From: a virus
Direction: 5' to 3' (one strand)
DNA: 38,335 nucleotides
Virus record (IMG/VR): IMGVR_UViG_3300017998_000006
Shown here: positions 1 to 38,335 of the stretch, piece by piece
How the letters are laid out: each line of letters opens with the position of its first letter
How positions within the stretch are numbered: the first letter of the stretch is position 1
The notes under the pieces: generated by a model
The model's input: only the letters and a program-made list of their open reading frames with translations
What the model was told of the DNA's origin: nothing
The model's database searches: none
Program-made: the position numbers and the translations under genes

Positions 1-123
1 ATACAAGATCCAATTGTTTTTAATACGGGGATTAAAATGACTTGGACATGCGGCGTTACTGCGCGCGTGAGCTTCTCTGGCACCTGTCTGCTGTTCGCGC
101 AAGCATGGTACTACACTGAGAAC
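1..123. repeat. Terminal direct repeat, copy 1 (identical to 38213..38335)
   Basis: atacaagatccaattg...gcatggtactacactgagaac read at both ends of the window, 123/123 identical; signature of a closed circular (or terminally redundant) assembly. Confidence 0.97.
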
Positions 124-8120: not shown

Positions 8121-8432
8121 TCACCGCTTCCCCCGCATCTTCCGCCCGGTGATCTTCACCACGCCGTTGGGGAGCTTCGTAATCGTCACCGAGGCCATAT
8201 TCCGCAAGGTGGTGGACTTGCCGTTGACCTTGCGGGGGTTCGTTCGACCCACCGTTCTGTTGTAAGCAGCCGCGTAAATGCGCTCCCAGTACGCCTTCTT
8301 CGATTCAAAATCTGGTTCGAGCAAAGCATGAAACCGCACCGTCATTCGCGCTTTTGATGGCCTAATTTTACGCCGCCCAAGAACTGCATTGCGACCGTCA
8401 TCAGAGCCCTGTTGTCGAAAGAACTCTACCAT
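8121..8432 (-). CDS. Basic protein carrying the shared C-terminal module NPRKVxGxSTTLRNMASVTIxKLPNGVVKITGRKMxGKR (paralog B)
   Basis: GAGAGG 8 nt before ATG 8432 (MVEFFRQQG...; longest ORF reaches 8597); the last ~40 aa are near-identical to residues ~65-103 of 12970..13365. Confidence 0.65.
   Translation of the reverse strand: MVEFFRQQGSDDGRNAVLGRRKIRPSKARMTVRFHALLEPDFESKKAYWERIYAAAYNRTVGRTNPRKVNGKSTTLRNMASVTITKLPNGVVKITGRKMRGKR
8136..8242. repeat. Dispersed repeat, copy B (coding; pairs with 13069..13175)
   Basis: Hand alignment: 107 nt with 20 mismatches, including a 27-nt perfect block (8136..8162 = 13069..13095). Confidence 0.85.
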
Positions 8433-12970: not shown

Positions 12971-13365
12971 TAGCGCTTTCCCATCTTCCGCTTGCTGTAG
13001 AACCGCTTCTCAGCGCGCCGCTTGAGGATCTTCTTCCGCTGGGCAGCCGAGTAGTTCCGTTTGCCCGCCATCTTCCGCCCGGTGATCTTCACCACCCCAT
13101 TGGGAAGCTTTCGGATGGTCACTGAGGCCATGTTTCGCAAGGTGGTGGAACGACCACGGACCTTGCGCGGATTCGAAATCGCATAGCGTTTGCCACCATC
13201 CACAACAGAGAGCGTTTCGCCAGGCTTCAGATGCGGCCGGCCAATATGAATTTGGCCTTCTCGAATCTTCTGCTCAACGACTTGCTTGGCATCGCTCCCC
13301 TCGTAATCGCGGTAGTATCGAATCGCCGCCGCCTTGCTCACGAAATGACTTGTGCCGTACGTCAT
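12970..13365 (-). CDS. Basic protein carrying the shared NPRKV..STTLRNMASVTI..NGVVKITGRKM module (paralog A) plus a Lys/Arg tail
   Basis: SNPRKVRGRSTTLRNMASVTIRKLPNGVVKITGRKMAGKR then NYSAAQRKKILKRRAEKRFYSKRKMGKR; ATGA-coupled upstream, TAATG-coupled to the glycosyltransferase. Confidence 0.7.
   Translation of the reverse strand: MTYGTSHFVSKAAAIRYYRDYEGSDAKQVVEQKIREGQIHIGRPHLKPGETLSVVDGGKRYAISNPRKVRGRSTTLRNMASVTIRKLPNGVVKITGRKMAGKRNYSAAQRKKILKRRAEKRFYSKRKMGKR
13069..13175. repeat. Dispersed repeat, copy A (coding; pairs with 8136..8242)
   Basis: See 8136..8242; 87/107 identical by hand alignment. Confidence 0.85.
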
Positions 13366-20300: not shown

Positions 20301-21866
20301 ATGGCAAAAACCAAGCCGCAAAGACCCAAAACCAGCCGAGTAGCTGAATTCCCGGCGCCTTCGAGTGACCCTGGAGCCGCAGACACCGCCGTCGCAGCCG
20401 AAGAACTGCCCGAACCGCAGCCACCGCCGAAAGCTGCGCAGAAGTCCGGCCAGTCCAAGCAAAAAGAACGGGACTTCGGCCCAGACCCGCTGCCAAAGAT
20501 CCAGGAATTTTTTGAACGATGCTCTGGTATCCGCCAACAGGACTGGCAAGCACGCGCCAAGGTCAAAGTCTACCGCTTAAAGCCGATCTACGATATGCTG
20601 ATCGGCTCGAAACGCAAGTACATTCGCATCTACGAGCTTGGCGCACCAACCGAGGAGCAGATCAAGCACGACTGCGGCAGCGGCCGCTACCGGCTCTACC
20701 TCAACTTCAAAACAGACGGAGCCGACCACGAAAAAGAACTCGCCTCCGTCGAGATCGATATTCTCGATCCGGCGTTCCCGCCTAACCTACCAGTAGGTGA
20801 TTGGCTGAACGATGAGGCAAACAGAGAGTGGAGGTGGGCGAGGCCCCTGCTCGAAGCACGCGAAGCGGAGGCAGCCGCCAAAGTCGCAAATAAAAACGAA
20901 CGCGCGGCGGCCAGCAGCTCTGGAAACATGCTCGAAGCCGTCCAGGTCCTCGGCGAACTCCAGGACCGCGCCGAGGAACGCGCGCGCGAACGAATCGACA
21001 GCGGACGGCCCCAAACTTGGGACCCTGCTCAGCAGCTTGCCACCGTGGTAACCGCAGCAAAGGACATCGCCGGCGCGCTCAAAGCCACCCCAGAAAATCC
21101 CATCCCAGCTTTCATATCCGAGCAAATGACCGCGATGCGCACCGAGCTTGCGGACGCGCGGCGGCGCAGTGATACGCTCATGGACAAGCTGTTGGATATG
21201 GCCCGAGCCCCGCAGCCCCAGCAGCAGAACGGCCTAAGCGCCGTCAAGGAAATCATGCAGGGCATCAAAGACTTCCTGCCCACCGTCCGGGATCTTTGGC
21301 CGAATGCGCCCGAGGATATCGCAGAGCGCGTGGTCAAATCGAAGATGGGACCGTGGCAGGAATTCTTCGCCCCGGTGCTTCCCAGACTCGTTGACGCGCT
21401 CGCTCCGATCATGCCTGCGATGGCAGCCGGTTTGATGGGAGGCAACGGACCAGCAAGACCGCCAGGAATGCCACCGCAAGCCCGTCTGCCCAACCCAGCC
21501 ATGCCCCAACCCAGCCCCCAGTCCCCGCCGCAAGCGCAGCACGCTCCAAACCTCGACGAAATGCTTTTGAACGCTCTGACCAGTGACCGCGACGGCGGAG
21601 AATTCGCGGACTCGCTCGTCATGCTCTTCGGCCAGCAAGGACAACTGATGTACCGCCAGGCCGCTTCACTCGGAGAGCAGGGCTTGCTTACGTTGATTCA
21701 GCAACGGCCCGTCTGGAACCAACTTGGACCGCTGCAATCCAAGGTGCCAGCCTTCGTTCATGAGTTCATCGAATGGGGCCAGGAGCCACAGGAAGAGATG
21801 GCGGAAGGCGCAGAACCGCCCGCCGCCGGTGAGGTGGTGGACCTCACGGGAGAAGCCACACAATGA
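20301..21866 (+). CDS. 521-aa early protein, unknown function (coiled-coil, Pro/Gln-rich), VVDLTGE tail
   Basis: GAGG 11 nt before ATG; first gene of the rightward block; C-terminus AAGEVVDLTGEATQ*; no NTPase or polymerase motif seen. Confidence 0.7.
   Translation: MAKTKPQRPKTSRVAEFPAPSSDPGAADTAVAAEELPEPQPPPKAAQKSGQSKQKERDFGPDPLPKIQEFFERCSGIRQQDWQARAKVKVYRLKPIYDMLIGSKRKYIRIYELGAPTEEQIKHDCGSGRYRLYLNFKTDGADHEKELASVEIDILDPAFPPNLPVGDWLNDEANREWRWARPLLEAREAEAAAKVANKNERAAASSSGNMLEAVQVLGELQDRAEERARERIDSGRPQTWDPAQQLATVVTAAKDIAGALKATPENPIPAFISEQMTAMRTELADARRRSDTLMDKLLDMARAPQPQQQNGLSAVKEIMQGIKDFLPTVRDLWPNAPEDIAERVVKSKMGPWQEFFAPVLPRLVDALAPIMPAMAAGLMGGNGPARPPGMPPQARLPNPAMPQPSPQSPPQAQHAPNLDEMLLNALTSDRDGGEFADSLVMLFGQQGQLMYRQAASLGEQGLLTLIQQRPVWNQLGPLQSKVPAFVHEFIEWGQEPQEEMAEGAEPPAAGEVVDLTGEATQ
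21834..21854 (+). repeat. 21-nt gene-end element, copy 1 (gtggtggacctcacgggagaa)
   Basis: Encodes VVDLTGE and contains GGAG 8-10 nt before the next ATG. Confidence 0.85.
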
Positions 21867-22330
21867 CACCTGTATACCAAATGGCCCCAGTCGCGGGGCG
21901 TTCGCCAATTTGGGCCACCGCAGAAGAATTTCGCGCCGTTCTAGAGCGTAAGAAAACGGCGATTCAAAAGCTCTGCACAGCGGCATGTGAATACTTGACA
22001 CTCGAAATCGACGCGGCTTTAGAAGGCTTTGAACACGCTCAGGTAGTTGGCCCGCCAACGCGCGCAACCGTGAAACCCGAAGATCTGATCGAAGCACAGC
22101 AGCGCTGCGAAGTGATCCAATCCCGAATAGAGGAGTTGCAAGAGGCGATTGACAGGTCGCCCATTCCGGAAATGGCCGTACTGCTCAAAACCGTCATGAT
22201 TCCAACCATTCAAACGGAATTAGAGCAGGCAACAGCATACCGAGACCACCTGCAACGTGGTCTTGAACAACAAACAGAACCGCCGAGCAGGGATGATAAA
22301 GTGGTGGACCTTACAGGAGAACCAGTATGA
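21863..22330 (+). CDS. Early protein, unknown function, VVDLTGE tail
   Basis: ATGA-coupled; helical/acidic; C-terminus SRDDKVVDLTGEPV*. Confidence 0.7.
   Translation: MTPVYQMAPVAGRSPIWATAEEFRAVLERKKTAIQKLCTAACEYLTLEIDAALEGFEHAQVVGPPTRATVKPEDLIEAQQRCEVIQSRIEELQEAIDRSPIPEMAVLLKTVMIPTIQTELEQATAYRDHLQRGLEQQTEPPSRDDKVVDLTGEPV
22301..22321 (+). repeat. 21-nt gene-end element, copy 2 (gtggtggaccttacaggagaa)
   Basis: 19/21 identical to copy 1; preceded by gataaa as in copy 3. Confidence 0.85.
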
Positions 22331-22605
22331 GCATTTCCGTTACAGAGGCATCGGAGCTTCGCCAAGCTGCGACGGAACGCCTGAATCAGCCCGCTATTGC
22401 GCTTCTGAAGGCACAGCTTGAGCAAGCCCGCAAATTACAATCGGCAACGTACGGACTACTCAGCCTAACTTTGCGCGACTGTGATAAGGTAGACCTCGAA
22501 TACGAACGGCTGCGATGCGCCGTAATCGAAGCACAAAGGCAGGAACAGGCAGAACGGGCCGCCACGAATGATAAAGTGGTGGACCTCACAGGAGAATCGG
22601 CATGA
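22327..22605 (+). CDS. Early protein, unknown function, VVDLTGE tail
   Basis: ATGA-coupled; C-terminus ATNDKVVDLTGESA*. Confidence 0.7.
   Translation: MSISVTEASELRQAATERLNQPAIALLKAQLEQARKLQSATYGLLSLTLRDCDKVDLEYERLRCAVIEAQRQEQAERAATNDKVVDLTGESA
22576..22596 (+). repeat. 21-nt gene-end element, copy 3 (gtggtggacctcacaggagaa)
   Basis: 20/21 identical to copies 1 and 2. Confidence 0.85.
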
Positions 22606-22799
22606 ACAGCAGAGCTTTCGCTTGCCTCACGGACGATGAACTAGAACGAATCGTGATGGAAGAGTTTTCAAAAGCGGAATCCGAAGGCTCCCACATCGCG
22701 CGCGACTGCGAAGTCTTTCTTGCTCGACGTGTCGCCGCCCGTTGCCGCCACCTCGCCCAGGTTGAAGTGGCGAACCTCATAGGAGAACTCGCACAATGA
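22602..22799 (+). CDS. Small early protein with degenerate tail (VANLIGE)
   Basis: ATGA-coupled on both sides; C-terminus AQVEVANLIGELAQ*. Confidence 0.65.
   Translation: MNSRAFACLTDDELERIVMEEFSKAESEGSHIARDCEVFLARRVAARCRHLAQVEVANLIGELAQ
22767..22787 (+). repeat. 21-nt gene-end element, copy 4, degenerate (gtggcgaacctcataggagaa)
   Basis: 17/21 identical to copy 3. Confidence 0.7.
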
Positions 22800-23128
22800 G
22801 CAAACTCAAACGGCGCCGCCACCTCCGCAAAAATCCCGCTGCCAATTTAACCCCTTTTGGACGGGATCTCCTAATCAGGATGCTGATCGGGGCTGAACCG
22901 CCAGAACTGGACATGATAATCGGTCTCACGCATTTGACGCGCGGCGCCCTGAATTCCAGCACCACAAAACACGCCGATTGTGCCTGCAAAGGCGAATGCC
23001 CTTGCCATACTTTCGGAGCACCCGCCGCCGGCCAACCATGTCCGCCCGACTGTAAGCACTATGGTGACCACTTCGATGGCTGCCACCGTTGCGACCCCAA
23101 ATGCCAACCGCCGGAGAAAGTTCAATGA
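22796..23128 (+). CDS. Cys/His-rich (metal-binding?) small protein
   Basis: RRRHLRKNPAANLTPFGRDLLIRML..; C-half HADCACKGECPCH..CPPDCKHYGDHFDGCHRCDPKC. Confidence 0.65.
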   Translation: MSKLKRRRHLRKNPAANLTPFGRDLLIRMLIGAEPPELDMIIGLTHLTRGALNSSTTKHADCACKGECPCHTFGAPAAGQPCPPDCKHYGDHFDGCHRCDPKCQPPEKVQ

Positions 23129-23607
23129 GCCTAGCCTTCATCACCACCTGCGCGCACTGCCCGCAGAAGTTCACGACGCCTGGTTTCGGAGATCTGCTCG
23201 GAACCGAATCAGGCCGGCTCAAAATCGGGAACGTCTTCCAAGCGCTGATCGGACATCTGCAAAAGCGCCACCCGGAGCAAGCTCAGCGAGCCGACCTGAG
23301 CGCCGCGATGCTCGGAGGCCTGCTACGCCTGATGAATTTCCACTCCGACGACCCGGTAGCCCTTGCTATGCGGGAATGGAACCGCCACGTGATCCACGAA
23401 ATGACGCGCGCCGCGACGTGCCCCGACAACAAGATTGAGGAGCAAGTCGCAGCCCTGGGCCTCAACGAATACACCGCCTTGCGCGTGGTCACACTCATAA
23501 AGCAGATGCGAGATGTGATCGAGGAGCGCGGAGCCTTTGCACCACCGGACCCCGCCAGCGCATCGAACGGCAAGCCACCCGCTGGCCCGACGCTGGTACT
23601 GCCGTGA
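23125..23607 (+). CDS. Hypothetical protein
   Basis: ATGA-coupled start MSLAFITTCAHCPQKF...; 160 aa with protein-like composition. Confidence 0.65.
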   Translation: MSLAFITTCAHCPQKFTTPGFGDLLGTESGRLKIGNVFQALIGHLQKRHPEQAQRADLSAAMLGGLLRLMNFHSDDPVALAMREWNRHVIHEMTRAATCPDNKIEEQVAALGLNEYTALRVVTLIKQMRDVIEERGAFAPPDPASASNGKPPAGPTLVLP

Positions 23608-29943: not shown

Positions 29944-30998
29944 AATCCCCGCAAAACTGGGCCATTTATTGTCTCAAAGATCCACGCACCGGCACAGTTC
30001 GTTATGTCGGCTGGACTTCACAAACACCCACAAGGCGTATGACATGCCATCTTTCAGAAGCACTTCACGAGTCGCGACAAGCACATACATTCAAATCCAG
30101 ATGGATTCGCCTCCTGCTAACCACAGGGGTTCGACCTGTCATGGAAGTTCTGGAAACAGGCATAGGCGATTCCTGGGCATCAGCAGAACAACGGTGGATA
30201 GCATTCTTTCGTGGTAACGGGGCGGCTCTCACAAATGGATCAGACGGAGGAGAAGGCAATTTGGGCTACAGTCCACCGCCAGAGGTTCGAGAGAAGATCT
30301 CACGCGCAAACAAGGGCTGCAAACGTTCGCCTGAGCATATAGCCAAAATGGCAGCAGCGGCTCGGCTGGCAAACACTGGGAGGCACCGTTCGCCGGAAAT
30401 CACAGAAAAAATTGCGAGCCAGCTACGTGGAGTTCCAAGACCTCCTGAAGTGTGGGAAAACTGCCGCAAAGCCTCAAAAGGCCGGATCGTATCAAAAGAA
30501 ACCCGCCAAAAACTCTCCGATTGTCGAAGGGGAAAGCCTCTATCTTTGGAAACTCGGGCGAGAATGAGTGAATCGGCCAAACACAAACCGCCCATGAGTG
30601 CTGAAACTCGCGCTCTCTTATCTGCAAAACTGAAAGGTCGCACATGCGGAACTCCAGAAGGACGTAGGAGCCGAATCGAAAAGATGCGGGGCCGCATAAA
30701 TCCCAAAGCGATAGCCGCCATGATCGCGGCAAACACCGGCTCCAAACACCCACCCGAAACAGCAGCTAAAAATGCGGCAACCCGTGCTAGCTGGCCCCCC
30801 GAATATCGGGCCGAAGTTGGTAGGCGAATCAGCGAGAAGTGCAAAGGCCGAAAACATTCAGCCGAAACACGGGAAAAACTCGCCGCATGGCATCGGGGCC
30901 GTAAAGCTTCTCCAGAAACGCTCATCAGAATGAGCGAATCTGCCAAGCGGAAGAGTTCAGCCAGCAACAACGGGTTGCTGAGCCTGTGGGAGCGCTGA
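29940..30998 (+). CDS. GIY-YIG homing endonuclease with ~10 NUMOD3-type repeats
   Basis: WAIYCLKDPRTGTVRYVGWTS (GIY-x10-YVG), ...AEQRWIAFF..LTNGSDGG; then repeated S/P-x-E-x-R-x-K-h-S-x-x-x-K/R-G units (PEVREKISRANKG, PEHIAKMAAAA, PEITEKIASQLRG, KETRQKLSDCRRG, LETRARMSESAKH, AETRALLSAKLKG, AETREKLAAWHRG, PETLIRMSESAKR). Confidence 0.85.
   Translation: MKSPQNWAIYCLKDPRTGTVRYVGWTSQTPTRRMTCHLSEALHESRQAHTFKSRWIRLLLTTGVRPVMEVLETGIGDSWASAEQRWIAFFRGNGAALTNGSDGGEGNLGYSPPPEVREKISRANKGCKRSPEHIAKMAAAARLANTGRHRSPEITEKIASQLRGVPRPPEVWENCRKASKGRIVSKETRQKLSDCRRGKPLSLETRARMSESAKHKPPMSAETRALLSAKLKGRTCGTPEGRRSRIEKMRGRINPKAIAAMIAANTGSKHPPETAAKNAATRASWPPEYRAEVGRRISEKCKGRKHSAETREKLAAWHRGRKASPETLIRMSESAKRKSSASNNGLLSLWER
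29940..30998 (+). mobile_element. Free-standing homing-endonuclease gene (selfish mobile gene)
   Basis: GIY-YIG/NUMOD3 architecture as in phage Seg/Tev-type endonucleases; its 3' 39 nt are duplicated 281 nt downstream. Confidence 0.5.
30960..30998 (+). repeat. 39-nt direct repeat, copy 1 (3' end of the endonuclease gene)
   Basis: gccagcaacaacgggttgctgagcctgtgggagcgctga; 36/39 identical to 31241..31279, with the last 27 nt perfect. Confidence 0.9.
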
Positions 30999-31279
30999 TG
31001 AACTCCACCGAAGCAGAAATGGCTCTTGACGATATCCAAAGAGTTCTTGGAGTTGCCAAACGGGTCATCGCAGCGCAGTTATCCCGACGAGCAGCAACCT
31101 GCACACCCACCTGTAACGCCAATCTCGTACCCGGCATGGCACACAATTGCGCACTGGGAGTGCGGGTACGGGAAATTGTGGACCGCCTAGTGTGGGAGAC
31201 ACCAGCGGCAAGACGTGAAATAGAAGATGTTTTAATTTCCGCCAGCAACTCAGGGTTGCTGAGCCTGTGGGAGCGCTGA
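30998..31279 (+). CDS. Hypothetical protein sharing its last 12 residues with the endonuclease
   Basis: TGATG-coupled; MNSTEAEMALDD...; C-terminus ASNSGLLSLWER* versus ASNNGLLSLWER* in 29940..30998. Confidence 0.6.
   Translation: MNSTEAEMALDDIQRVLGVAKRVIAAQLSRRAATCTPTCNANLVPGMAHNCALGVRVREIVDRLVWETPAARREIEDVLISASNSGLLSLWER
31241..31279 (+). repeat. 39-nt direct repeat, copy 2
   Basis: gccagcaactcagggttgctgagcctgtgggagcgctga. Confidence 0.9.
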
Positions 31280-31281
31280 AC

Positions 31282-31506
31282 ATGGCACAGACCAAGACGC
31301 GAAGCGAAGAGGTCCGAAAGATCATCAAGGCATTGCTGGAAGCCGGAGACGCCAGCGCAGCCGCATCAAGCACCGGCAATCCGGCTGAACTCAACAAGGC
31401 GGAGCGCCAAACTGACCGGGCGATCACCAAGGCCTACAGGTTCATGACGGGCGAAGACCCGCCGACTGGCGACCTCGTGGAATTCGTCTACGGAGAGCCA
31501 GAATGA
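31282..31506 (+). CDS. Hypothetical small protein
   Basis: ATG 2 nt after the previous stop; MAQTKTRSEEVRKIIKALLEAGD... Confidence 0.55.
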   Translation: MAQTKTRSEEVRKIIKALLEAGDASAAASSTGNPAELNKAERQTDRAITKAYRFMTGEDPPTGDLVEFVYGEPE

Positions 31507-31682
31507 ACAGCTTTCAGTACGCCATAGCCAAAGCCGCTTGGGAAGCCTCCTACGAAGCCAACCACGAGGACGAGTTCGCAGGCTTTGACGATCTCAGCCC
31601 GAAAAGACAACGCGCATGGCTTGCGGCTGCCATCGCAGCGCTTGAAAAAGCTGCCGAATACGCCGCTGGAAGGTCCCAATGA
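31503..31682 (+). CDS. 59-aa protein (below the ORF-track cutoff), N-terminal paralog of 31679..31900
   Basis: Hand translation MNSFQYAIAKAAWEASYEANHEDEFAGFDDLSPKRQRAWLAAAIAALEKAAEYAAGRSQ*; ATGA-coupled at both ends. Confidence 0.55.
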   Translation: MNSFQYAIAKAAWEASYEANHEDEFAGFDDLSPKRQRAWLAAAIAALEKAAEYAAGRSQ

Positions 31683-31900
31683 ACAGTTTTCAGTACGCCA
31701 TAGCCAAAGCCGCGGAAGCATTTGAAAACGAGTTTCTGATCCGGCTGGCCGCCACCTGGTTAAAGTGCCGATGGTGGATCATGGGACACCGGCTGTACGG
31801 AGGCCCCTACGACCTTCCAGGAACGCTGTTGGCGATGGAGGACTATGCCGCCGAAATGCGCCTCCTGTGCGCTGAAATCAAGGTGCGCCCTCATGTATGA
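31679..31900 (+). CDS. Hypothetical small protein, same first 12 residues as 31503..31682
   Basis: MNSFQYAIAKAAEAFENEF...; the first 35 nt are 34/35 identical to 31503..31537. Confidence 0.6.
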   Translation: MNSFQYAIAKAAEAFENEFLIRLAATWLKCRWWIMGHRLYGGPYDLPGTLLAMEDYAAEMRLLCAEIKVRPHV

Positions 31901-36983: not shown

Positions 36984-38335
36984 TGAAACGCGTTCTCCCC
37001 CTGGTTTATCTCGCAGTGGCCGCAGGATGGTTATGTGCTCAGAATCCCGTAGTTCGGAGCAACATCGGGGCACATCTGGCGTGTCCAGCAGCTTCCAGTT
37101 CAGGTACCACTTACACCTGTGCCACTTCTCCGACCTTCACCCCAGCCGCAAACGACTGCGTTCTGCTGGTGGCGGATGTCGCCAGTGGCGCATCGCCCAC
37201 CCTGGCAGTCAACGGCGCTGCGGCTCTCGGAATCACGAAGCAGCAGAACGGCGCGGCGCTTGTGGCCAACGATCTGTTAGCCAACGGTCGAGTTCTGGTC
37301 TGCATGGATGCCGCTTCGCATTGGCAGATGCAGGGACAAACCGGAAACGCGGCGAGTGGCGGAGTTACTAGCATCAATGGCCTTACTGGGGCCGTGGCGC
37401 AACAGCAGATCACAGACATCTTCTCATCGAGCAAACCCGCAGGTGTCATGGGTACGTATTACGGCAGTCAGACTCTAGGCGCAGGCGCGACGGGAACTCT
37501 ACTCGCTACTGTAACCGGATCTGGATATGTGAGCGAGATATTTGTCGCGGTGAACCAAAGCCCCATCGCAATCACCGTCACAGTGGATGGAGAAGCCACT
37601 CCGTCAATTTCCGCATATAGCGTTCAGACGTTCTTAGGAGATGGGCTGTGTGACATAAGCCCATCTTGGGGAGGAAAGTGGATACGTGGCGGAAATAACG
37701 GAGCCAACAACTGCGGCGGGCTGTTCCGCATCCCAATCCCATTCTCTTCGTCGATTCTCATCCAGGCCAAGAATAATTCCGCCAACACTGTTGGCATCGC
37801 AAGCTATGTGGTGTATCACACCGGGATCACCGACAACTGGATATATACGCAAAGGCTTTACAACTCCGAAGCTTACGTTGCAGGGATGGCCGAGGACACA
37901 GAGGGGACTATTCTGGATGTGACCCCCAACAAGCGTGGCCGGTTGGTGGGAGTCGGCTGGATTTACGATGGGGCTCCCGGCGGCGCTAGCCCATCGACAG
38001 GACCGCTAGAAGGCCCATTCAAGATCTATATTGATGGATCTGGAACCGCAGCTTACAGAACTTCAGGGAGCGAAGATTTCTTTGGAATGCCCTGGTACTT
38101 CCAGCATCTTAATAACTTTGGCTCGGGATACAATACCACCCTTGCCCCTTCGTCGGAAGATATCGCACTGACGTTTGATGCGCCACCCACCTTCGGTGCA
38201 CAGCGCTTTTTTATACAAGATCCAATTGTTTTTAATACGGGGATTAAAATGACTTGGACATGCGGCGTTACTGCGCGCGTGAGCTTCTCTGGCACCTGTC
38301 TGCTGTTCGCGCAAGCATGGTACTACACTGAGAAC
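36983..38335 (+). CDS. Secreted protein with C-terminal DUF2961/GH172-like beta-jelly-roll domain (spans the circular junction; stop at 124..126)
   Basis: MKRVLPLVYLAVAAGWLCAQNP; ITVTVDGEATPS, FRIPIPFSSSILIQAKNNS, GRLVGVGW..LEGPFKIYIDGSG..TSGSEDFFG, QRFFIQDPIVFNTGIKMTW, AQAWYY follow the DUF2961 motif order as I recall it. Confidence 0.65.
   Translation, partial: MKRVLPLVYLAVAAGWLCAQNPVVRSNIGAHLACPAASSSGTTYTCATSPTFTPAANDCVLLVADVASGASPTLAVNGAAALGITKQQNGAALVANDLLANGRVLVCMDAASHWQMQGQTGNAASGGVTSINGLTGAVAQQQITDIFSSSKPAGVMGTYYGSQTLGAGATGTLLATVTGSGYVSEIFVAVNQSPIAITVTVDGEATPSISAYSVQTFLGDGLCDISPSWGGKWIRGGNNGANNCGGLFRIPIPFSSSILIQAKNNSANTVGIASYVVYHTGITDNWIYTQRLYNSEAYVAGMAEDTEGTILDVTPNKRGRLVGVGWIYDGAPGGASPSTGPLEGPFKIYIDGSGTAAYRTSGSEDFFGMPWYFQHLNNFGSGYNTTLAPSSEDIALTFDAPPTFGAQRFFIQDPIVFNTGIKMTWTCGVTARVSFSGTCLLFAQAWYYTEN
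38213..38335. repeat. Terminal direct repeat, copy 2 (identical to 1..123)
   Basis: See 1..123. Confidence 0.97.

Follow-up and report, generated by a model that had tools for sequence, protein, structure and literature searches.

For T4-type phages, a short repeat named PeSL (promoter-early stem-loop) has been described that borders non-essential open reading frames (ORFs) in the hyperplastic genome region (Arbiol et al. 2010, PMC2839356) and that consists of an intergenic promoter plus a terminator stem-loop of approximately 100 bp (PMC2839356). At the peptide level, two other systems invite comparison—the internal proteins of phage T4, which carry a capsid targeting sequence and are encapsidated into the scaffolding core (Rao and Black 2010, PMC3012670), and RNF4 with its SUMO-interacting motifs (SIMs; SUMO, small ubiquitin-like modifier), of which SIM2 reads ..EIVDLTCES and SIM3 reads ..PVVVDLTHND (PMC4083429). 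Here, we describe a locus in the genome of a tail-less virus from soil (IMG/VR record IMGVR_UViG_3300017998_000006; its whole stretch of 38,335 nucleotides is called the window below) that resembles each of these systems in part. It is composed of a conserved anchor gene, gA, whose protein ends in the heptapeptide VVDLTGE plus a few residues, and of small cassette genes inserted behind it, several of which end in a DNA copy of the 3' end of gA.

Like PeSL, the gA-derived repeats lie at the borders of variable ORFs by whose insertion, deletion, or replacement relatives differ, and they bring expression signals for the neighboring gene. They differ from PeSL in being coding sequence made of the 3' end of a core gene, a Shine–Dalgarno (SD) sequence, and overlapping stop and start codons, without a promoter, a terminator, or a stable hairpin; neither promoter-like nor terminator-like sites were found at the junctions, and the combination of sigma-70 promoter and terminator stem-loop that characterizes PeSL is absent from the repeat. 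Since it is coding, the gA repeat, unlike PeSL, additionally equips cassette proteins with a peptide. What the locus shares with the internal proteins of phage T4 is a single short conserved terminal peptide on otherwise diverse proteins, which in T4 serves as an address. The capsid targeting signal of T4 is N-terminal and is cleaved off. The gA-type peptide, in contrast, is C-terminal, and its copies can be recognized as duplications, at the DNA level, of the end of a neighboring gene. The RNF4 SIMs read almost the same as the gA tail ([VI]-V-D-L-T), likewise with acidic neighbors and in a disordered region, and the tail conforms to the SIM consensus of a hydrophobic core ([VI][VI]xL/[VI]) with acidic flanks, though in pattern only. 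SIMs are eukaryotic and bind their partners by beta-strand addition, and SUMO is not known from bacteria; the likeness is a resemblance only and not evidence of homology.

In the window, the plus strand carries four copies of a 21-mer starting at positions 21834, 22301, 22576, and 22767 with 0, 1, 0, and 3 mismatches, respectively, and no match appeared in any of 100 shuffled sequences. Each copy is in frame, 2 to 3 codons ahead of the stop of its ORF, and a six-frame search found the peptide VVDLTGE nowhere else in the window. A first-pass annotation made from the sequence without database searches had noted four consecutive proteins with the same heptapeptide end, degenerate in the last, and both the copies and the C-termini are as it read them; its 21-nucleotide consensus fits in general, except that the copy at 22301 encodes leucine as CTT and not as CTC, which is synonymous. 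The same annotation rightly took the four proteins to be unrelated in body (BLASTP finds the tail as their only common part) and placed the copies just ahead of ATGA stop/start overlaps, which is true of all four junctions. Their layout is always GGAGAA, then 7 to 8 nucleotides, then ATGA, and relatives show the same. If translational coupling is marked by a GGAG-type SD located 5 to 10 nucleotides before a start codon overlapping the preceding stop, all four junctions of the window are of this kind, with the SD inside the upstream gene. The copies of g2 and g3 lie in a longer repeat of 65 nucleotides with 78% identity that extends past the stop and covers the initial codons of the following gene. 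At the end of g4, the copy keeps four of the seven heptapeptide residues, and the last 12 codons differ from the window's own gA tail by six non-synonymous changes and one synonymous change, but the 3' part (AGGAGAA, spacer, and ATGA) is intact and forms the conserved ribosome-binding region of g5. All features are listed in Table 1. For g2, the gene calls of JGI use an ATG at 21881 (149 aa), and the ATGA-overlapped ATG at 21863 stands 8 nucleotides past GGAGAA. None of gA and g2 to g6 belongs to a Pfam or PHROG family of known function.

Table 1. The gA locus and its tail copies (positions refer to the window).
Feature	Position	Strand	Description
gA (521 aa)	20301..21866	+	conserved anchor gene; its C-terminal tail is the source of the repeat
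T1, gA tail core	21834..21866 (21-mer 21834-21854)	+	embedded GGAG and ATGA overlap with the g2 start
g2 (155 aa)	21863..22330	+	cassette gene of a widespread four-helix family, usually without tail
T2, duplicated gA gene-end junction, ~59 nt	22274..22332 (core 22301-22321)	+	includes ATGA and the first g3 codons
g3 (92 aa)	22327..22605	+	cassette gene; among the loci examined, in contigs of this strain only
T3, duplicated gA gene-end junction	22550..22605 (core 22576-22596)	+	repeat family D6
g4 (65 aa)	22602..22799	+	cassette gene with decayed tail copy
T4, decayed window-type gA junction	22755..22799 (core 22767-22787)	+	12 codons compared with T1
g5 (110 aa)	22796..23128	+	Cys-rich cassette gene, present in some relatives
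g6 (160 aa)	23125..23607	+	conserved; right border of the slot

Judged by its conservation among relatives, VVDLTGE is a C-terminal short linear motif of gA that is under selection at the protein level and not merely an SD. A search of 5.8 billion protein clusters retrieved 28 gA homologs of 49% to 100% identity, and the tail motif is present in 28/28. The full-length homologs with at least 60% identity (21/21) end in a variable acidic and proline-rich linker, VVDLTGE (VMDLTGE in one of them), and 2 to 3 variable residues, and the seven more distant ones (clade 2) share P-P-I-D-L-T-A-E followed by 12 more conserved residues. D514, L515, and T516 are invariant in an alignment of 20 sequences that are 48% to 74% identical to the window's gA. 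Beyond these, IMG/VR relatives at 29% to 32% identity end in V-I-E-T-T-A-E-A-N or T-I-N-T-T-A-Q-E-A-G-N, and a relative of 26% identity in a Bryobacterales provirus (L148) ends in V-I-D-L-T-A-Q-S; a core [VI]DLT[GA][EQ] is retained at 26% to 60% identity with other codons and without GGAG. GGAG is absent from the clade 2 codons (ATT GAT CTG ACG GCG GAA), and the following gene has its SD approximately 36 nucleotides further downstream; since the motif is kept there regardless, it is not just a Shine–Dalgarno site.

These comparisons agree with the view of the first-pass annotation that conservation of the VVDL codons is more than the embedded GGAG explains. It had regarded a shared peptide as refuted if relatives conserved only the GGAG; what they keep is the core peptide, written in different codons, and in clade 2 the GGAG is absent. 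The comparison of synonymous and non-synonymous change that it had proposed points the same way, since all variants seen in eight clade 1 gA genes, which affect 5 of the 7 motif codons, are synonymous. When both clades are taken together, the D, L, T, and E columns have a codon identity that is average for invariant residues (0.52 versus 0.53). An AlphaFold2 (AF2) model of gA, built with an alignment, has a confident N-terminal beta domain (residues approximately 60–160) and a confident helical domain (418–494), with residues 495–521 disordered at a predicted local distance difference test (pLDDT) score of approximately 30. The gA tail thus combines the marks of a short linear motif, which are a disordered site, protein-level conservation across divergent homologs, and variable flanks.

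For gA itself, neither a profile search against PDB sequences nor Foldseek against the PDB gave a match, and the ESM Atlas returned nothing informative. A wide structure search found weak helical matches only (Z ≤ 5.2). For residues 413–497 (window 21539–21791), six of the top 20 matches are the type III secretion gatekeepers TyeA, MxiC, CopN, SepL, BopN, and InvE at Z scores of 4.2 to 4.7, which lie below noise for helical folds and can serve as a lead only. A separate reading of the tail as a protease site was ruled out because clade 2 has no glycine there.

We compared the gene neighborhood of gA in 14 distinct relatives and find that g6 always comes after gA sooner or later. The slot between the two genes holds 0 to 4 cassettes and measures −4 to 1258 nucleotides (14 genomes). 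Cassettes are lacking in L024, where the slot of −4 nucleotides means that the ATGA of gA is the start of g6; a single cassette is present in seven or eight genomes, two in three genomes, three in L015, and four in the window (1258 nucleotides). The cassettes are mostly unrelated to each other, and the slot combines repeats at the borders of variable ORFs with gain and loss among relatives. Their G+C content at third codon positions (GC3) is 0.50 to 0.59, compared with 0.67 to 0.75 in gA, g6, and g7, while at first and second positions (GC1 and GC2) they resemble ordinary coding sequence; this is also true of g3, with coding-like GC1 and GC2 and a low GC3 of 0.53. The strain-level contigs L005–L012 have no single-nucleotide polymorphisms in g2 to g4. 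The right border gene, g6, has Cys9, Cys12, His44, and His49 invariant in 11 relatives, which suggests a zinc site.

Among the cassettes, g2 belongs to a family of 65 clusters at 50% identity in a library of 1.84 billion proteins, with members of approximately 125–170 aa that are four-helical. Its AF2 model has a mean pLDDT of 88.7 and finds no fold match with Foldseek against the PDB. Proteins of this family usually stop a few residues past the conserved helix. The tail is found in the L015 member only among the 65 cluster representatives, plus in the window's g2. Homologs of g2 are 52% to 59% identical, of which the L019 member stops before the tail, and among 90% clusters there is no close homolog besides g2 itself. 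One distant member of the family is not located beside a gA-like gene.

Alignment of the cassette ends to the gA genes of relatives shows that the repeat is a duplicated gene-end junction, produced upon cassette entry into a hot spot of recombination downstream of gA. Five genomes contain cassette ORFs whose ends are DNA copies, 13 to 21 codons long, of their own clade's type of gA tail. The window has such copies on g2 and g3 and a decayed one on g4; L015 has them on its g2 homolog and on an unrelated ORF of 65 aa; in L021, the last 63 nucleotides of a 62-aa ORF are the gA end (63/63 nucleotides); L017 carries a clade 2 tail copy of 60 nucleotides at 93%; and L022 has the last 13 gA codons only, without the I-D-L-T core. 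The g2 copy matches the gA 3' end of L004 at 84.7% over 59 nucleotides, and the g3 copy matches the gA ends of L001 (91.5% over 47 nucleotides) and L004 (85.7% over 56 nucleotides), in alignments that take in linker codons, the stop, and the next start. Both are closer to the "DDK" tail type of other lineages than to the window's own gA tail, and the g4 tail is closest to the window's own type.

The joints of the insertions themselves are preserved in some relatives. The first L021 cassette (c1) starts with the first four g6 codons, and a further copy of 15 nucleotides of the junction follows the insert. Inserts in both L021 and L017 are flanked by duplications of the g6 start, 15 to 16 nucleotides long. 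In L017, a g5 cassette lies between perfect 16-nucleotide duplications of the g6 start, and at the left joint the g6 start is fused to the 3' part of a clade 1 tail at a microhomology of 6 nucleotides. Where cassettes have their own stop (L001 c1 and L021 c2), AGGAGAA and the spacer alone remain before the next start, and the SD-to-start stretch ahead of g5 in L001 and L017 similarly stands without the peptide-coding half. A full-length element out of frame or in non-coding sequence was found in no locus of the family. The first-pass annotation had offered a shared C-terminal peptide and an element reused at each junction as two compatible readings; each is partly right, and what they missed is the source of the repeat in the duplicated end of the gA gene.

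These comparisons show that the gA|g6 junction is a hot spot at which cassettes are inserted, lost, or swapped via short homology or microhomology, and that each recombination event duplicates part of the junction. An inserted ORF thereby comes to end in frame in a copy of the gA tail, and the next gene inherits a ribosome-binding site and a coupled start. What is new here is that the donor can be named, namely a motif of an anchor gene that stays conserved down to 26% identity, and that two versions of the tail exist, each copied within its own clade, with the intermediate stages all visible. The locus displays the stepwise gain of accessory genes behind a core gene, from junction duplication and in-frame fusion to SD-only decay and microhomology joints, and such insertions can hand the short linear motif of a core protein to unrelated newcomers.

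Two other repeats in the window are of similar make. At 30956–30998 and 31237–31279, a GIY-YIG/NUMOD3 homing-endonuclease ORF and the next ORF share a 43-nucleotide end at 91% identity; this repeat holds a GTG start, the ORFs after both copies begin with M-G-A-L, and we class it as a duplicated gene-end junction. At 31480–31537 and 31656–31713, consecutive ORFs of 59 and 73 aa share the SD region and the first 12 codons (58 nucleotides at 81%), a duplicated gene-start junction.

As to whether the tail acts on the proteins that acquired it, we lean slightly towards the view that the intact tails serve g2 and g3 as a functional docking tag. The locus does present one short terminal peptide on otherwise unrelated proteins. 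In the intact copies (g2 and g3 of the window, c1 and c2 of L015, c1 of L021, and c1 of L017), all non-synonymous differences fall into the linker or the last residues, which also vary among gA orthologs, and only two changes have occurred in the core; both are synonymous, with 27% synonymous expected by chance. Between g2 and g3, there are 2 mismatches in the 30-nucleotide core and 12 in the 35-nucleotide flanks (Fisher p = 0.013). These copies thus seem to be under the same peptide-level constraint as gA itself, and the tail would probably be a portable docking tag that either brings g2 and g3 to a putative partner of gA or makes them compete for it, with the copy on g4 decaying. By analogy to SIMs, beta-strand addition is a plausible binding mode and would be the most likely one. 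The first candidate partner is g6, given its translational coupling to gA in L024, which lacks cassettes. If the tail is a working tag, the motif becomes a handle for finding the putative partner of gA, and the slot a natural model for the recruitment of new proteins to an interaction network. Going further, the gA|g6 junction could be a "tagging site" that supplies captured DNA with a coupled start, a stop, and a SIM-like beta-strand docking peptide, an idea that we consider rather doubtful from the sequences at hand. If true, accessory proteins and even ORFs arisen de novo would be delivered at once to the putative partner of gA, amounting to a virus-encoded wiring of new genes into an existing interaction hub.

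Several observations weigh against a working tag. The constraint on the cassette copies is read from few substitutions and could be mimicked by the youth of the copies or by gene conversion from gA. The g4 copy has three non-synonymous changes in the core, the L022 copy comprises only the part past the core, and six or more cassettes in the slot have no tail. The copies may be read in frame simply because the ORF has to terminate at ATGA: neither of the two alternative frames of the element contains a stop, and in one of them, the ORF would continue into the following gene as a fusion. The first L021 cassette looks accidental, since it consists of four codons of g6 and a low-complexity stretch joined to the tail. 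A hitch-hiking peptide would account for much of this—the origin by junction duplication would be the same, but the peptide would be idle on the cassettes, the copies being young or gene-converted and retained for a 3' half that supplies the SD and the start. We take this explanation seriously while considering it clearly on the improbable side. It fits the continuum of full, partial, decayed, and SD-only copies, the 100% identity over 63 nucleotides of the L021 copy on a probably accidental chimeric ORF, the lack of the tail in 64/65 cluster representatives of the g2 family and in many slot cassettes, and the similar junction duplications of the same genome at 30956/31237 and 31480/31656. It fits less well that in g2, g3, and two L015 cassettes the linker and the last residues have diverged but not the heptapeptide, whose core has changed only synonymously, and that g2 and its L015 homolog, at 52% identity, have the tail at the same fusion point with the core intact. 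Should the tail be idle on the cassettes after all, it would be a warning that termini shared by neighboring phage proteins can be scars left by recombination rather than functional signals.

The remaining explanations differ from the docking tag in what they take to be selected or how the copies arose, and we regard all of them as very improbable. That the 21-mer is selected as RNA or DNA—as a coupling structure, a hairpin, or a recombination site, with the peptide irrelevant even in gA—could be argued from the GGAG inside the motif, from its position at cassette borders, and from clade 1, which taken alone shows stronger conservation of the tail codons than of other invariant ones (0.77 versus 0.57, P = 0.015), a result that also counts against a purely peptide-level reading. 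This excess of synonymous conservation points to some nucleotide-level constraint as well, which fits the overlapping SD and a role in recombination. However, clade 2 and the provirus keep the peptide with other codons and no GGAG, which largely refutes the idea for the 5' 14 nucleotides, and where the element is untranslated, the SD part alone survives. Six junction RNAs (four from the window and two from relatives) fold into different structures, with none common to all, and do so no better than shuffled sequences (z from +0.47 to −1.03). In the sequences compared, behavior as a nucleotide-level element is confined to the segment of SD, spacer, and ATGA. Of the coupling or RNA element suggested by the first-pass annotation, there hence remains the 3' half (AGGAGAA, spacer, and ATGA), which is reused at every junction, but no shared RNA fold. 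A C-terminal degron that marks the proteins for a host protease of the ClpXP or Lon type, also among the earlier suggestions, we find a shade less credible still, although the exposed C-terminal position of the tail and its disorder in the AF2 model would suit one. The terminal residues vary (ATQ, PV, SA, PA, PTA, and SVQ) and are set by the ATGA overlap, that is, the last 2 to 3 residues are dictated by the start codon of the next gene, and the clade 2 core lies 12 residues from the end. An ssrA-type degron ends in LAA, which the gA tail does not resemble, and the conserved extreme C-terminal residues of such a signal are not seen here, given that the last 2 to 3 residues vary among both orthologs and copies. 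Least credible of all is an origin of the four genes from one by whole-gene duplication with divergence of everything except the C-terminus. As tandem paralogs might, the genes neighbor one another on a single strand and are small and helical, but their bodies share no similarity in BLASTP beyond the tail, g2 derives from a large family without tail, and the slots of relatives hold quite different genes.

Beyond the gA virus family, there is no evidence from sequence searches for the motif as a general C-terminal tag, which the first-pass annotation had proposed to look for in viromes. A degenerate scan of IMG/VR for VVDLTGE codons gave at least 118 matches, and 99 of those listed are more than 20 codons from the stop, which marks them as chance internal occurrences. 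Among the matches listed, only one is both clearly C-terminal and unrelated, an otherwise different viral ORF of 203 codons (L139, reverse strand, motif at 2896) that ends in VVDLTGE plus five residues. A scan of IMG/VR for the exact 21-mer found one close relative only, and blastn of the locus against GenBank phages gave no match. A word-based search for short proteins with the gA tail returned just two, of 83 and 204 aa on short contigs, which are probably gA fragments.

The window represents a virus-like genome that is complete at 38,212 bp, has 58% G+C, and carries a perfect terminal direct repeat of 123 nucleotides (window 1–123 equals 38213–38335), compatible with a genome that is either circularly permuted or has direct terminal repeats. 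The gA family as a whole belongs to uncultured tail-less viruses. Two distant gA relatives lie inside contigs of bacterial metagenome-assembled genomes, one of 26% identity in a Bryobacterales contig of 1.15 Mb (L148, CAVRNR010000006.1) and one of 34% identity in a Bryobacteraceae contig of 219 kb (L147, JBELAO010000003.1), and both adjoin serine-recombinase-like genes. These loci are integrated relatives, which gives Acidobacteriota (Bryobacterales) as a lead to the hosts of this virus group. Elsewhere in the window, a repeat of 119 nucleotides with 80% identity joins two otherwise unlike late genes (8124–8242 and 13057–13175).

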